A stretch of 64,000 bases of DNA from Eledone cirrhosa (lineage: Eukaryota): NCBI GenBank assembly GCA_964016885.1, contig OZ024741.1, positions 270,816,001 through 270,880,000 on the forward strand. The letters are read 5' to 3'. Shown one piece after another: positions 4,984-64,000 of the stretch; the first letter of the stretch is position 1, and every line of letters starts with the position of its first letter. Made by a program: the position numbers and the translations under genes. Below the pieces are notes generated by a model. It was not told where the DNA came from, did no database searches, and worked only from the letters and a program-made list of their open reading frames with translations.

Positions 4984-5031
<48 letters not shown>

Positions 5032-5234
5032 TATGTATACGTACATACATATATGTATACAGACGTACAGTAGTATGTATATATATATACACATACATGC
5101 ATACATTTATATATGTACGTATGGATTCACCGAACATTTATTATAATGCTCGGTGTATTTGTAAACAAACATCCCGTATTAAACCGTAGTGTCTAGCAAC
5201 CATCGTTGCTCATTTGTTCAACACTGACAAAGGA

Positions 5235-5277
5235 ACGCTGTTCTAGTTTCAAGCTTATTAGCTATCGTCAGCAACGT
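5235..5277 (-). ncRNA. Minimal type I HHR, copy 1 (cleavage triplet mutated to GAA)
   Basis: acgttg-CTGACGA-t agct aata agct t-GAAAC-ta-GAA-cagcgt. Confidence 0.7.
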
Positions 5278-5665
5278 ATACCTTCCTGCCAGATGAATGA
5301 ATGTCTGAAAGTATATACTTTCCTTATGCATATTAACGGCTGAGCAGCCTAATTTGCATATCGAGTGGGTTAATCGGCTGGGTGCACCGAAAACGATAAA
5401 CGGAAAAATGAAACAAAATTTCATTTCCCACTCTTAGTACTGCTGTTACTTAAATATAAGTATGTATACGTACATACATATATGTATACAGACATACAGT
5501 AGTATGTATATATATACATACATGCACCCATATATATATATATATGTACGTATGGATTCACCGAACATTTATTATGATGCTCGGTGTGTCTGTAAACAAA
5601 CATCCCGTATTAAGCCGTAGTGTCTAGCAACCATCGTTGCTCGTTTGTTCAACACTGATAAAGGA

Positions 5666-5708
5666 ACGCTGTACTAGTTTCAAGCTTATTAGTTATCGTC
5701 AGCAACGT
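5666..5708 (-). ncRNA. Minimal type I HHR, copy 2
   Basis: Same fold with a GTA triplet; one stem II mismatch. Confidence 0.8.
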
Positions 5709-6095
5709 ATACCTTCCTGCCAGATGAATGAACGTCTGAAAGTATATACTTTCCTTATGCATATTAACGGCTGAGCAGCCTAATTTGCATATCGAGTGGG
5801 TTAATCGGCCGGGTGCACCGAAAACGATAAACGGAAAAAATGAAACAAAATTTCATTTCCCACTCTTAGTACTGCTGTTACTTAAATATAAGTATGTATA
5901 CGTACATACATATATGTATACAGATGTACAGTAGTATGTATATATATATACACATACATGCACACATATATATATGTACGTATCGATTCACCAACCATTT
6001 ATTATAAAGCTCGGTGTGTTTGTAAACAAACATCCCGTATTAAGCCGTAGTGTCTAGCAACCATCGTTGCTTGTTTGTTCAACACTGACAAAGGA

Positions 6096-6138
6096 ACGCT
6101 GTACTAGTTTCAAGCTTATTAGCTATCATCAGCAACGT
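6096..6138 (-). ncRNA. Minimal type I HHR, copy 3
   Basis: acgttg-CTGATGA-tagctaataagctt-GAAAC-ta-GTA-cagcgt. Confidence 0.88.
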
Positions 6139-6621
6139 ATACCTTCCTGCCAGATGATTGAACGTCTGAAAGTGTCTACTTTCCTTATGCATATTAATGG
6201 CTGAGCAGCCTAATTTGCATATCGTGTGGGTTAATCGGCTGGGTGCACCGAAAACGACAAACGGAAAAAATGAAACGAAATTTCATTTCCCACTCTTAGT
6301 ACGGCTGTTACTTAAATATAAATATGTATACGTACATACCTATATGTATACAGACGTACAGTAGTATGTATATATATATACATACATGTACACATATATA
6401 TATGTACGTATGGATTCACCGAACATTTATTATAATGCTCGGTGTGTTTGTAACAGCCGTACTAAGAGAGGGAAATGAAATTTCGTTTCATTTTTCCGTT
6501 TATCGTTTTCAGTGGACCCGGCTGATTAACCCACTCGATATGCAAATTAGGCTACTCAGCCGTTAATATGCATAAGGAAAGTATATACTTTCAGACGTTC
6601 AATCATCTGGCAGGAAGGTAT

Positions 6622-20569: not shown

Positions 20570-21165
20570 GTTACAGAGCAGATGTGATTTCAGGTGAGGA
20601 CAACATCTGAAGATCTCGGTCTTGGAGTTCAGGCAAGTTGAAGTGGCTTTCTAGTTTTGTAGAATTCTAAATTTTTCAGTGGTACACAAAGAACAATTCT
20701 TTGTGCCCCTTTGGTATTCCCTCGAATGGTCTAAAATAGACCAATCGATAGAGTACGGGATGTTTTTATCTTTGAATTCCCACACTTTATTTGCGAGAGC
20801 CGTTGCTGTTCTTTTATAAGAGTGTTTAAAAGAAGTGCATAAAACCTGGTTTTGAACCTGTCCTGAGTCATGCCAACATATCGTTCACTCCTGGCTGGCT
20901 GCTTGTTAATCAAAGGTGTCACTTTGGCCTCATATACAACGGATTTGGAATTACATTTGCCCTGTAATGGGCATTCATCCGGCTTCCTGAAACTGCATCC
21001 TGGATTTATTCTCGTACAATTAGAATTGGTGATTTTAGACTTCATTGATGGGCAGCAAGAGTAACTGATTTTAACTACATTTCTATTAAATATCTTATAA
21101 TATCTATGAATAGGGGGAAAATGTTTGTCTAAGAGGTCAAGGAATTTCCTTCCTACATTAGTTTT
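20570..21165 (-). mobile_element. Penelope-like element fragment (GIY-YIG region), frameshifted
   Basis: TNVGRKFLDLLDKHFP, IFNRNVVKISYSC, CPLQGKC..VVYEAKV...RYVGMTQDRFKTRF; same type as the 35.3-37.8 kb element. Confidence 0.85.
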
Positions 21166-21166
21166 G

Positions 21167-21197
<31 letters not shown>

Positions 21198-21276
21198 GTG
21201 TGCCTGATGGTAGGTAATATGCTTCCATAGGCGGTATGCCGGTTGAGCACTCTATGTTCTTACAGAGCAGAATATG

Positions 21277-21490: not shown

Positions 21491-21515
<25 letters not shown>

Positions 21516-21657
21516 AGTTTATGTTGGTTGTATACCAACACCTCAGTATGCAGGCTGGAGCACTCGACGAAGTGCGCAGGTTGGTTTGGTTACTCCGGAG
21601 TAGTGTAAAATAAAGTTAAATAAAAGTCAAATGATTAAAATTTAGCTTCGTTTATTA

Positions 21658-21710
21658 CTGCTATATATATTTCAGTGACAGCCATCTTTGGCTGTGACCT
21701 CTTCAGGCAG
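21658..21710 (-). ncRNA. Minimal type I HHR
   Basis: ctgc-CTGAAGA-ggtcacagcca aaga tggctgtcact-GAAAT-atat-ATA-gcag. Confidence 0.82.
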
Positions 21711-21893
21711 TTTGAATTAGTATGGTATAGACAAGTACATATGTTGTTTAGGTGTATGATATTGTCAATACTCTGATATGCCCAGTTCCTTGTTGGGTTG
21801 TTAATTCACTGGGGAACTGGAGTCATATCAGAGTATTGACAATATCATACACCTAAACAACATATGTACTTGTCTATACCATACTAATTCAAA

Positions 21894-21946
21894 CTGCCTG
21901 AAGAGGTCACAGCCAAAGATGGCTGTCACTGAAATATATATAGCAG
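21894..21946 (+). ncRNA. Minimal type I HHR (inverted twin)
   Basis: Identical motif on the plus strand. Confidence 0.82.
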
Positions 21947-22255
21947 TAATAAACGAAGCTAAATTTTAATCATTTGACTTTTATTTAACTTTATATATAT
22001 ATATATATATATTAGAAAGATCGAGTATCGAAAAATCGGCGCACGAGTTCACGATAAACAATATTCGAAATGAGCGGCAGAGGGCTCAATAATTCAGATG
22101 AATCAGAGCTATAACTATCGTTAAAATACCGTCACACATAGAACAAGTCTAAAATCAACCATACGATAAAAAATCGATAATAGAAGATTCGGGACAATCA
22201 GATAAAAAATATCAATAAAACAATACATCAATAATTTAAATGAATGTAAAATCAT

Positions 22256-22391
22256 ACCCGGACCCACTAGAAAGGTGTTAAATCTAGCTTCTTGGGTTTC
22301 TGTAAATCCTTAGACTGTACTCTATCAGCTCACATATAAATATATAAGACTTCTAGAGCAAGCGGAATGGAAGTTTACTTCATCAACGAGC
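22256..22391 (-). ncRNA. Type I HHR variant (UUGAUGA core), unit 1
   Basis: gctcg-TTGATGA-a gtaaa...tttac a-GAAAC-cca..ctaga..tctag tgg-GTC-cgggt. Confidence 0.7.
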
Positions 22392-22871
22392 TTTTTCCTA
22401 GTGGATAAGAGGTTAACTACAAGCGAAATACGCACATGGAATCCGGCAAGGGAGATAACCTCTACATCCGCGAAAACTATTCGAGGAAATGTGGAAATAC
22501 ACATATCGAATAAGAGTGCTCAATAGACATGTTAAAATAAAACAGGAGCTATTCATCACTCAATAGAATCGACAAAAAATGAGCAATAAAATTAACTGGT
22601 GGATAGCTATGTCCAGAGCTAAAAATATTAGAAAGATCGAGTATCGAAAAATCGGCGCACGAGTTCACGATAAACAATATTCGAAATGAGCGGCAGAGGG
22701 CTCAATAATTCAGATGAATCAGAGCTATAACTATCGTTAAAATACCGTCACACATAGAACAAGTCTAAAATCAATCATACGATAAAAAATCGATAATAGA
22801 AGATTCGGGACAATCAGATAAAAAATATCAATAAAACAATACATCAATAATTTAAATGAATGTAAAATCAT

Positions 22872-23007
22872 ACCCGGACCCACTAGAAAGGTGTTAAATC
22901 TAGCTTCTTGGGTTTCTGTAAATCCTTAGACTGTACTCTATCAGCTCACATATAAATATATAAGACTTCTAGAGCAAGCGGAATGGAAGTTTACTTCATC
23001 AACGAGC
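22872..23007 (-). ncRNA. Type I HHR variant, unit 2
   Basis: Same motif as unit 1. Confidence 0.7.
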
Positions 23008-23488
23008 TTTTTCCTAGCGGATAAGAGGCTAACTACAAGCGAAATACGCACATGGAATCCGGCAAGGGAGATAACCTCTACATCCGCGAAAACTATTCGA
23101 GGAAATGTGGAAATACACATATCGAATAAGAGTGCTCAATAGACATGTTAACATAAAACAGGAGCTATTCATCACTCAATAGAATCGACAAAAAATGAGC
23201 AATAAAATTAACTGGTGGATAGCTATGTCCAGAGCTAAAAATATTAGAAAGATCGAGTATCGAAAAATCGGCGCACGAGTTCACGATAAACAATATTCGA
23301 AATGAGCGGCAGAGGGCTCAATAATTCAGATGAATCAGAGCTATAACTATCGTTAAAATACCGTCACACATAGAACAAGTCTAAAATCAACCATACGATA
23401 AAAAAATCGATAATAGAAGATTCGGGACAATCAGATAAAAAATATCAATAAAACAATACATCAATAATTTAAATGAATGTAAAATCAT

Positions 23489-23624
23489 ACCCGGACCCAC
23501 TAGAAAGGTGTTAAATCTAGCTTCTTGGGTTTCTGTAAATCCTTAGACTGTACTCTATCAGCTCACATATAAATATATAAGACTTCTAGAGCAAGCGGAA
23601 TGGAAGTTTACTTCATCAACGAGC
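23489..23624 (-). ncRNA. Type I HHR variant, unit 3
   Basis: Same motif as unit 1. Confidence 0.7.
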
Positions 23625-23684
23625 TTTTTCCTAGCGGATAAGAGGCTAACTACAAGCGAAATACGCACATGGAATCCGGCAAGG

Positions 23685-23717
<33 letters not shown>

Positions 23718-23729
<12 letters not shown>

Positions 23730-24590
23730 TGTAGTAAGAAACACAGTAAACCGTGCGTCTAATATTACGAGGGTTGAAAAACCACATTTGTTTGAAATAT
23801 TTAACCATGAAGCAGACAGAATGATAAAATAAAATTATATTATACAAACCGCCTCAATAACAGGCGAAACAGATTATCCCTAATCTGTCCGAGAGATGTA
23901 ATTGTTATTGAGGCGGTTTGTATAATATAATTTAATTTTATTTTATCATTCTGCTTCATGGTTAAATATTTCAAACAAATGTGGTTTTTCAACCCTCGTA
24001 ATATTAGACGCACGGTTTACTGTGTTTCTTACTACATATATATTATTATAATGCTCAGTATTTATACTTGGAGCTTATTGATTGCAGGGTTTCAGTAAGA
24101 GTTATTAACTCTAACTTTCATTTATATTTCGGCTCCCTCATGAGGTGAGCTTATTAAGTTGCGTGTGTTGGACTGTTGTTTCTAACCAATACACTCATAC
24201 CACTTTTGACTTACGGCGCACGAGGTGATAAATTCATCTTTCTGTGTGAACGTTGGTACTAGGTGTTTGTCGCAATTAATCAGATTCTCTCGCTGATGAT
24301 GCCCATGATTATCTGTTACAAACACACTCAGGGCGAAACAGATTATCCCTAATCTGTCCGAGAGATGTAATTGTTATTGAGGCGGTTTGTATAATATAAT
24401 TTTATTTTATTTTATCATTCTGTCTGCTTCATGGTTAAATATTTCAAACAAATGTGGTTTTTCAACCCTCGTAATATTAGACGCACGGTTTACTGTGTTT
24501 CTTACTACATATATTATTATAATGCTCAGTATTTATACTTGGAGCTTATTGATTGCAGGGTTTCAGTAAAGAACTCTAACTTTCATTTAT
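23718..24590 (+). repeat. Partial tandem (~469-bp period) with an inverted 5' segment; HHR-bearing pLTR/retrozyme-like insertion
   Basis: GAAACAGATTATCCC at 23866 and 24335; ~23718-23862 is the reverse complement of the downstream unit. Confidence 0.85.
24286..24365 (+). ncRNA. Canonical type I HHR
   Basis: tctctcg-CTGATGA-t-gccc...gggc-GAAAC-agatta tccc taatct-GTC-cgagaga; all three stems fully paired. Confidence 0.93.
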
Positions 24591-26396: not shown

Positions 26397-27283
26397 CGAG
26401 GTGTGTCAGAAAAGTTCCAGGACTGATGTCACAAAAGATTTATTTCAAACCCAAACTTCACACTAAGAGTTTTCTCCTTCAAAGTAATCCCCTTGGAATC
26501 TAATGCACTTTTCCATCCTTTTCTACCATGCTTGCATGCACTCCTGGAAGGATTCTTCCGGGCTCCTCCACAGTTCCGTCGTCACAGCCTTTTTGATGTC
26601 GTCCACGTCTTCAAAACGCGTCCCCTCCGGGTCGTACTCAAAGATCCATGACTCATCACCGGGGATGACCCTCCCTAGCAAGTCTGGTTCGGTTTCAAGA
26701 CGCTCAAGGATGTCCTGGCACACTTGCATACGTCGACTCTTCTGGTCATCGTTCAGCAGTTTTGGCACCATCTTCGCGCAGACTTTCCACGTGTCCAAAT
26801 CTTCAGTGAGAATCTTCCAGACGCTGTCCCCATTCATGCCCAGCTCATTTGCCATCAGTCGAACAGTCAGCTGACGATCGCTACGCACCATCTGCCTGAC
26901 GTGCTCACCGTTGACCTGAGTCCTGGTTGTTGAGGGCCTTCCGCTCCTGGGGTCATCTTCCACGTCCTCAAAAACACGTGAGCTTGACATCGTCTCATCT
27001 CCATACACTTGCTGCAGCAATCCCAGTGCTTCTGACGGAGTTTTCCGCAACCCTACTAAAAACTTCAAGTTTGTTCGTTGCTCTGTGCTCATTGCTTGAC
27101 GACCTGAAACAGAGGACATGTATATAAAATTATGAAGAAAAAAGTTTGATCGCTGCAGAGAGCTAAGATTACAGTTACATACTCCAGGGGGATTACTTTG
27201 AAGGAGAAAACTCTTATTGTAAAGTTTGTGTTTGAAATAAATCTTTTGTGACATCAGTCCTGGAACGTTTCTGACACACCTCA
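26397..27283 (-). mobile_element. Internally deleted mariner (Tc1/mariner) DNA transposon
   Basis: ~55-bp TIRs (CGAGGTGTGTCAGAAA...) with TA flanks; ORF has an HTH, KMVPKLL and GDESWIFEYDPE fused directly to the C-terminal RFEDVDDIK. Confidence 0.92.
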
Positions 27284-27359
27284 TATATATATGTGGTGAC
27301 AGTCAAGTTTGCAATTTTCAACAGTTGAAAATTGCAAACTTGACTGTCACCACACATTA

Positions 27360-49404: not shown

Positions 49405-49990
49405 ATAGGGAGTGACAGACGCTACACTCCTATCAAGGTGATATATCTCAGCTGTGGTAGACTCTACACCCCAGTCTAGGTGGTATATTTCAGCTGTGGT
49501 AGGGAGTGACAGACTCTATACCCCTGTGAAGGTGATATATCTCACTGTGGTAGGCTCTACACCCCAGTCTAGGTGGTATATCACAGATGTGGGTGGGTGG
49601 CTCTACACCCTAGTCTAGGTGGTATATCACAGCTGTGAGTGGCTGACTACACCCCAGTCTAGGTGGTATATCTCTGCTGTGGTAGGGAGTGACAGAATCT
49701 ACACCCCAGTCTCGGTGGTATATCTCTGCTGTGGTAGGCTCTACACCCCAGTCTAGGTGGTATATCTCAGCTATGGTAGGGAGTGTTAGACTCTACACCC
49801 CAGTGTAGGTGGTATATGCCAACTGTGGTAGGGAGTGACAGACTTTACACCCCAGTCTAGATGGTATGTCTCAGCTGTGGGAGGGGACTGGTAGACGCTA
49901 CACCCCTGTCAAGGGTATATATCTCAGCTGTGAGAGGGGAGTGATAGACTCTACACCCCAGTCGAAATGGTATATATATATCAGCTGTGC
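49405..49990. repeat. Degenerate minisatellite, ~40-52-bp units
   Basis: CTCTACACCCCAGTCTAGGTGGTATATCTCAGCTGTGG repeated ~12 times. Confidence 0.9.
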
Positions 49991-62140: not shown

Positions 62141-62659
62141 ATTTAATACTTTTAATAGTAAACTACCTAAAACCACCCTTGTTACTATCACACAAAACTG
62201 TTTATGTAGCATTTATAATTATCAGCAAACTTTCGATTGTAAGTCTATGTAAGTAGATATCGACCCCGGAAGGATGAAAGTCGAAGTTGATCTTGGCGGA
62301 ATTTGAACTCAGACACTTGAAGAGACGTAACAAATGTTACACACGGCATTTCATTCAATGCTTTACCGATTCTGTCAATCCACCACCCACAATGACTTGA
62401 GGAATATCAACACTAGATTTATTTACCCAAGACAAAACATTTCTATGTTTTACAGAAGTTTGGCAAGAAGGCGGTGGATTGGCAGTATCGGTAGAGGGTT
62501 GGACATCATGCTTTGCAGCAAAGAGTTATGGCCCTATATGGTCTGAGTTCAAATGCCGTTGAGGTTAACTTTGCCTTTCATCCTTACAAGGTCGATAAAA
62601 TAAAGCACCAGTAATACACTGGGATAGTTGCTGGCCTTGTGCCAAAGGTTTTGTCATAT

Positions 62660-64000
62660 TATCATAGACCAGGAGTCTCTGTCTTACAGAAGTTATGTTA
62701 CCTTATCATAGACCAGGAATCTCTGTCTTACAGAAGTTATGTTACATTATCATAGACCAGGAGTGTCTACTCTGTCTTACAGAAGTTATGTTACATTACC
62801 ATAGACCAGGAGTGTCTACTCTGTCTTACAGAAGTTATGTTACCTTATCATAGACCAGGAGTGTCTACCATGTTTTACAGAAGTTATGTTACATTATCAT
62901 AGACCAGGAGTCTCTACTATGTCTTACAGAAGTTATGTTACATTACCATAGACCAGGAGTCTCTGTCTTACAGAAGTTATGTTACATTACCATAGACCAG
63001 GAGTCTCTGTCTTACAGAAGTTATGTTACATTATCATAGACCAGGAGTGTCTACTCTGTCTTACAGAAGTTATGTTACATTACCATAGACCAGGAGTGTC
63101 TACTCTGTCTTACAGAAGTTATGTTACCTTATCATAGACCAGGAGTGTCTACCATGTTTTACAGAAGTTATGTTACATTATCATAGACCAGGAGTCTCTA
63201 CTATGTCTTACAGAAGTTATGTTACATTACCATAGACCAGGAGTCTCTGTCTTACAGAAGTTATGTTACCTTATCATAGACCAGGAGTCTCTATGTTATA
63301 CAGGAGTTATGTTAGATTATCATAGACCAGGAGTCTCTACTATGTCTTACAGAAGTTATGTTACCTTATCATAGACCAGGATTCTCTACTATGTCTTACA
63401 GAAGTTATGTTACCTTATCATAGACCAGGAGTGTCTACTATGTCTTACAGAAGTTATGTTACCTTATCATAGACCAGGAGTGTCTACTATGTCTTACAGA
63501 AGTTATGTTACCTTATCATAGACCAGGATTCTCTACTATGTCTTACAGAAGTTATGTTACCTTATCATAGACCAGGATTCTCTACTATGTCTTACAGAAG
63601 TTATGTTACATTATCATAGACCAGGAGTCTCTACTATGTCTTACAGAAGTTATGTTACATTATCATAGACCAGGAGTCTCTACTATGTCTTACAGAAGTT
63701 ATGTTACCTTATCATAGACCAGGATTCTCTACTATGTCTTACAGAAGTTATGTTACCTTATCATAGACCAGGATTCTCTACTATGTCTTACAGAAGTTAT
63801 GTTACCTTATCATAGACCAGGATTCTCTACTATGTCTTACAGAAGTTATGTTACATTATCATAGACCAGGAGTCTCTACTATGTCTTACAGAAGTTATGT
63901 TACATTATCATAGACCAGGAGTCTCTACTATGTCTTACAGAAGTTATGTTACCTTATCATAGACCAGGATTCTCTACTATGTCTTACAGAAGTTATGTTA
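62660..64000. repeat. Satellite of 44/48/49-bp monomers extending past the window end
   Basis: TATCATAGACCAGGAGTCTCTACTATGTCTTACAGAAGTTATGTTAC(A/C)T, ~28 copies. Confidence 0.97.

Follow-up and report, generated by a model that had tools for sequence, protein, structure and literature searches.

The window analysed here is a stretch of 64,000 nucleotides from a 3.0-Gb genome, and it carries on its minus strand a tandem insertion at 22011..23689. Period analysis of the window gave 616 as the best repeat period for this array, which amounts to 2.7 head-to-tail units in 1,679 bp because its third unit is partial. Unit 1, the 3'-most (22011..22626), and unit 2 (22627..23242) are both 616 bp long and differ at 4 positions, as expected from the original prediction of 2.7 near-identical tandem copies. 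Unit 3 (23243..23689) spans unit positions of about 170-616 with one extra A, the insertion being 5'-truncated at about 23689. The array appears to be non-coding, its longest stop-to-stop frame being 70 aa.

The fixed 3' end of the insertion (22011..22030, minus strand) presumably marks the main start of reverse transcription, as judged from 2,450 genomic matches of this end plus (AT). Both ends of the array sit in (AT)n. The target at the 3' end (21993..22010) is the end of an adjoining two-armed element, and no target duplication could be read at the 5' junction, where (AT)n covers 23688..23730. At the unit-to-unit junctions inside the array the sequence runs on with AT and would match an (AT)n primer.

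Hammerhead-bearing elements lie on either side of the array. The two-armed element (21512-21994) has perfect inverted arms of 171 nt, one of them with about 100 nt more, and contains a minimal canonical hammerhead with C3 at 21898 (plus strand); the array is inserted in its (AT)n end. On the other side, an inverted and repeated element (23720-24514) contains a canonical C3-G8 type I hammerhead, and the hammerhead at 24286-24365 (plus strand) gives a clean fold (z -3.0). Elsewhere in the window, a decayed mariner-like transposase frame could be read by eye at 26523-27302 (minus strand; weak HTH_32 match, E 0.004), and other tandem arrays occur at 5025-6453 (430 bp), 49406-49975 (42-52 bp) and 62658-64000 (49 bp).

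Predicted hammerhead fold and core of the 616-bp unit

Each unit contains one TTGATGA on the minus strand, with U3 at 22386, 23002 and 23619, and a motif search of the array found no CTGANGA. The replacement of CTGATGA by TTGATGA in every unit, as first noticed, therefore holds. Fold prediction and family variants place a type I hammerhead at 22256..22391 in unit 1 (minus strand). It is predicted to consist of a 5-bp stem I (22391-22387 with 22260-22256), the core segment U3-A9 (22386-22380) followed by an extra A at 22379, stem II (22378-22302) followed by an extra A at 22301, G12-A15.1 (22300-22297) and a stem III that runs up to U16.1 at 22262, with C17 at 22261. The second hammerhead (22872..23007, U3 at 23002) was likewise placed by fold prediction and the third (23489..23624, U3 at 23619) by motif match, both on the minus strand. 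Cleavage (GUC|C) is predicted between unit positions 366 and 367, that is at 22260..22261 on the minus strand and at 22877/22876 and 23494/23493 in the other units. We take this position from the hammerhead consensus, which we regard as established.

The isolated motif of 149 nt folds unaided into a three-way junction with a stem I of 5 bp, a long stem II, a bulged stem III and the GUC site, with a z of only -1.7, 14 of 200 shuffles being equally good. RNAalifold on 53 distinct family variants returned a three-way junction identical to the single-motif fold. The named structure was paired in 98.0% of 2,276 cells, versus 28-51% in slid controls. Covariation is sparse: changes on both sides of a pair were seen for 3 pairs, mostly in one sequence each, and at the 3-8 pair they are confined to one side. 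The features of a type I hammerhead are present (open stem I, three-way junction, A15.1-U16.1 and an NUH site), and stem I and stem II both have candidate bulges through which a tertiary contact between the two stems might form. An alternative fold that blocks stem III was seen in a 179-nt fragment and was absent from whole-unit folds. Rfam gave no hammerhead match for the array, either at the gathering threshold or at E up to 10.

The core departs from the canonical C3UGANG8A...G12AAA, since nearly all family cores have U3 together with G8 or A8; U3-A8 is a natural variant already published, and U3·G8 retains only a wobble. The adenines that had been described as an A-A pair at the base of stem II are real, but a more fitting reading is a G10.1-C11.1 pair with a single additional base on either side, which separates this pair from the core. 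The G10.1-C11.1 pair is kept in 53 of 53 variants. Across the family the extra base on the 5' side is A or C, and the one on the 3' side is always A.

A dispersed family and its insertion ends

The proposed recent insertion of a large retrozyme-like unit is supported. The array is a member of a family dispersed over at least 2,450 insertions, which share a single fixed 3' end in (AT)n, vary at their 5' ends and range from dimers to multimers. The figure corresponds to 2,450 genomic occurrences of the fixed 3' end followed by (AT), with at most one mismatch allowed, and excludes the older lineage, whose 3' end differs. Reversed-pattern controls gave 0-2 matches, compared with hundreds to thousands for the real patterns. 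A DNA search with the unit returned 91 matches from the 39 scored of 2,159 candidates. The common 3' end and the differing 5' ends were seen in the best 30 loci and in 60 loci among the first 100 listed ends. The lineage of the window itself is represented by at least 132 loci with the exact 62-nt end and by 154 exact cores. Related units, all of them from related lineages, were found in contigs of four other organisms, with A8 cores in two. The units in contigs from three of the other organisms are ~90% alike and some fall near the youngest lineages, which may reflect close kinship, transfer or contamination.

The predicted cut after unit position 366 precedes the fixed 3' end by 250 nt, and directly past it lies a 29-nt zone (unit 367-395; 22232..22260 on the minus strand) in which the 5' ends of family copies accumulate. 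This zone was first noticed in an initial sample. The test sample then consisted of 60 new loci from the U3·G8 lineage to which the window's array belongs, taken among the first 80 listed after leaving out 20 loci that had been retrieved before. In 24 of the 60 new loci the 5' end falls at unit 367-395, at most 29 nt past the predicted cut. Counted by pass, 24/75 ended in the zone, against 1/76 in the next, more AT-rich downstream window and 1/51 upstream. For the pooled data the zone holds 25/82 and the rest of the unit 37/1,072 (p about 1e-14). When the 20 left-out loci, which are biased to long copies, are added by hand, 25/80 end in the zone, which makes up 4.7% of the unit.

The upstream edge of the pile-up lies within 0-3 nt of the cut (367, 370, 371, 372), and one copy, L034, begins exactly at unit 367. 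Upstream of the cut, none of the 60 new loci has a 5' end closer than 22 nt; in three other copies it lies 5-9 nt upstream, two at 361, both among the 20 left-out loci, and one at 358. Most ends in the zone are scattered 3-28 nt past the cut and do not sit on the cut itself, a scatter that would be expected from trimming to a short match with (AT)n. A pile-up just past the cut is the footprint expected if the reverse transcriptase ran off cleaved RNA. Because so many copies end there, the hammerhead with its U3·G8 core likely cut in living cells.

The other end features of the family resemble those of non-autonomous Penelope-like elements: a fixed internal 3' end, 5' truncation, an AT-rich target and an inverted arm. 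An inverted second arm was found in 2 of 237 loci (L172 and L237), in both cases starting near unit 511, and these two insertions define a putative second fixed start, which in the array corresponds to 22114..22120 (minus strand). A second start at unit 517 had given 0 matches, and the site near 511 was then read from L172 and L237. In L172 both arms end at about 381-383, just past the cut. Penelope-like elements are known for internal and paired start sites, for inverted arms and for AT-rich targets (PMC11167929, PMC8557442). The internal start, the two starts, the inverted arms and the (TA)n targeting seen here thus point to Penelope-like enzymes as the likely mobilising enzymes, possibly of the Hydra clade.

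The window also contains, at about 20600-21200 (minus strand), the 3' portion of a Penelope-like ORF, which is frameshifted and shows Hydra-clade motifs. The family of this fragment is very large in the genome, with 45,957 first-look candidates and long open frames of up to 733 aa. Its Hydra label comes from RWK, DKT and CxCX5C motifs read by eye in a relative, and these motifs are given for the (TA)n-targeting Hydra clade (PMC8557442). Pfam returned no family for two neighbouring Penelope-like frames in the window. A comparison of the 616-bp unit with 30 loci of one Hydra-type family revealed no homology, and the helper is therefore inferred rather than identified. In L002, L122 and L149 the flank immediately 5' of the insertion repeats, in inverted orientation, the sequence that follows the (AT)n on its 3' side, which looks like a reverse duplication of the target flank.

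Core lineages, array length and alternative readings

The original prediction suggested a tally of C versus T at core position 3. We ran this genome-wide with a core pattern in which positions 3, 7 and 8 and the extra base were left free, and obtained 2,357 cores, counted as units and not as insertion events, so that long arrays weigh heavily. Position 3 is T in 2,355, C in 1 and A in 1. U3 is thus no local mutation, and a local C-to-T decay of the core can be ruled out. Among the 2,355 T3 cores, position 8 is G in 816 and A in 1,539 (by subtraction) and never a pyrimidine, an absence that says little per copy because the copies are young, position 3 itself having 2 exceptions. Position 7 takes U, G, C or A depending on the lineage. 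Core positions 3-6, 9 and 12-17 are constant at the lineage level across 13% divergence, over which position 7 varies.

Trees with one unit per locus (59 and 98 rows; loci without a full unit were left out) are both stepwise ladders, and arrays are uniform for lineage variants. The older lineage (UUGAGGA, UUGAAGA) is 87% identical. When it is included, the midpoint root falls inside the window's lineage, with low support near the root. On the midpoint-rooted tree G8 is followed by A8 (UUGAGAA, UUGAUAA, UUGACAA) and then by G8 again (UUGACGA), giving two changes of position 8, between G and A only. Differences within arrays number 0-4 per unit in the window's lineage and are mostly 0 in the UUGACAA lineage, which fits the lineages' order on the tree.

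We consider it probable that the array is one insertion of a young, non-coding family, that its predicted U3·G8 hammerhead likely cleaved RNA in vivo and that the copying was likely done by Penelope-like enzymes. In the proposed cycle, the array would be transcribed and the hammerheads would cut the transcript into 616-nt monomers, some of which would then be circularised by ligation. The RT-endonuclease of a Penelope-like element would nick (TA)n DNA and prime internally on the RNA, at unit position 616 and, as a second start, near unit 511. On a cut linear RNA, copying would end 250 nt on and give the common copies of 220-250 bp; on a circle or an uncut multimer it would run on and give arrays like 22011..23689. 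In L053 and L088, variants confined to one or two loci are shared by all units of an array, which requires a bottleneck of one unit, such as a circle or template jumping. In an array of 13 units (L038, L134; G000:C1:44.27-44.28 Mb), T stands in place of one G in 5 units that do not adjoin each other, in one case together with a change next to it, and the array is otherwise nearly invariant. This could stem from a damaged base in one circular template, from gene conversion or from an assembly error.

The original prediction suggested that the U3·G8 wobble could attenuate cleavage and thereby preserve multimeric templates; on this model, multimeric linear templates kept in this way would yield tandem arrays. 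A wobble in the 3-8 pair is indeed expected to lower the rate, going by the established structure and a mutant scan (PMC9901934), and the in-vitro rate of U3·G8 may be lower. Many templates were also copied through the site (38/59 on first pass), and a G8 revertant array of at least 20 units and an old-lineage G8 array of about 40 kb are known. The first-pass stops at the site point the other way. They number 21/59 in the window's lineage, 5/12 and 2/16 in two A8 groups and 1/20 in the youngest group, which has the long arrays and in which 18 of 20 loci are not G8. The contrast between the window's lineage and the youngest, mostly U3-A8 group is significant (Fisher p 0.009) and is weaker by phase alone (25/64 vs 2/15). 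The mean lengths of the same four groups are 0.9, 0.65, 1.9 and at least 7.3 units, the last with 5 of 20 lengths censored. The assignment of short copies relied on 3' markers, and 3 loci could be placed in no group. The wobble lineage thus shows the strongest footprint together with short arrays (longest 5.2 units), and arrays of 13-20+ units occur with U3-A8 as well as with U3·G8 in other lineages, so that length does not track the 3-8 pair. Arrays can gain or lose units once inserted, which makes their length an imperfect measure. Growth of this kind is suggested by the interspersed variants of the array of about 40 kb at G000:C1:81709747-81748762, some of which are compensatory in stem III; this array, of the old UUGAGGA lineage, likely grew into a satellite after insertion. 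The attenuation idea is accordingly unsupported, and we regard it as quite unlikely.

The pile-up of 5' ends might alternatively arise in a Penelope-mobilised repeat through a transcription start near 367 or a stall of the reverse transcriptase at the base of stem I, with a weak or vestigial hammerhead. The fact that the ends lie 3-28 nt inside the predicted end would fit such a reading, and so would the full mutant scan of another hammerhead, as presented in the portion of the report available to us, where all single and double changes in the core motif except a G-C swap had low activity (PMC9901934). Yet the pile-up begins on its upstream side at the cut site, no such accumulation of ends is seen at stems II and III or at the longer hairpins predicted in unit 396-616, and core positions 3-6, 9 and 12-17 have stayed unchanged across the lineages. 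We therefore find a start or stall unlikely. That the repeat is a DNA-level satellite or DNA-transposon-like repeat with an incidental hammerhead shape appears very improbable. Some arrays probably did grow after insertion, and Rfam finds no hammerhead, but thousands of dispersed loci share one 3' end with variable 5' ends, the tree is a ladder with arrays uniform for lineage variants, and the pile-up sits at the ribozyme site. The end structure largely refutes this reading already. Within the preferred reading of a hammerhead that cut in vivo, we put forward tentatively a dated series from U·G to U-A and back to U·G, in which the ends of the copies would record cleavage in vivo, the U3·G8 ribozyme would have cut efficiently in cells and the youngest lineage would have been left largely uncut and copied many times round closed RNA circles; we think this somewhat doubtful.

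Relation to known systems

Judged by its sequence, the 616-bp family works like the animal non-LTR retrozymes and shows their testable features. In the accessible text of two reports (PMC7229834; 10.64898/2026.07.22.740005), these are likewise tandem arrays of non-coding units that each carry a single type I hammerhead, are low in GC, range from dimers to large multimers and occur together with Penelope-like elements, and 616 bp falls inside the range of 51-972 bp given in the latter. The ribozyme differs: the 616-bp family has a U3·G8 or U3-A8 core where theirs is C3-G8, an additional base on either side at the foot of stem II, a stem II of about 77 nt and a bulged stem III. Expression as linear and circular monomers is a trait of animal non-LTR retrozymes, and for the 616-bp family circular RNA is a prediction. 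Insertion ends have been mapped to the cut site here, and no such mapping appears in the available parts of those two reports. According to the second one, 8 of 9 Xenopus retrozyme dimers showed no in-vitro cleavage (10.64898/2026.07.22.740005).

PLE hammerheads offer a parallel for the core. Covariation to U3-A8 is published for Schistosoma elements and other natural ribozymes, and minimal PLE hammerheads have been described with an additional base after position 9, ahead of 10.1, and with conservation of the G10.1-C11.1 pair, as in the 616-bp family (PMC4209133, PMC3088659, as far as available). They have a tiny stem III and are proposed to act as dimers, whereas the 616-bp family has full stems. 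Anolis Poseidon (PMC11167929) and the Hydra clade (PMC8557442) resemble the family in their internal RT start, two starts, inverted 5' arm, AT-rich or (TA)n targets and tandem copies. Unlike these, the 616-bp unit has no ORF, and its starts lie about 105 nt apart, compared with a tail of 30-40 bp. In the part of the Anolis study consulted, the Penelope element did not require cleavage in vitro, reads starting at the cut were absent and uncut RNA dominated the assay (PMC11167929). In contrast, cut RNA seems to be a common template in the 616-bp family.

Whether Penelope-type hammerheads cut in vivo, and whether the template is cut, uncut or circular, is unsettled in the literature as far as it was accessible, and insertion ends supply a genome-scale footprint that bears on in-vivo cutting. 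If the reading is right, cutting in cells would tolerate a wobble at a pair regarded as requiring Watson-Crick geometry, and hammerhead families of this kind would escape standard descriptors and Rfam entirely. In the main texts of the literature searched, we found neither a mapping of ends to a hammerhead cut site nor a natural, spreading U3·G8 core, of which supplements may list cases. What makes the family valuable is the footprint left by its ends and its natural series of cores, rather than the window's own copy.

A distinct family, found in the flanks of L128, L046 and L132, combines a canonical CUGAUGA core with a long stem II whose basal G-C pair has an additional base on either side, as in the 616-bp family; it is a possible model for the ancestral C3-G8 state. 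In L147 (2745-2800, plus strand), an unrelated-looking sequence contains UUGACGA-A-GUAAA and perhaps represents a further U3·G8 family.
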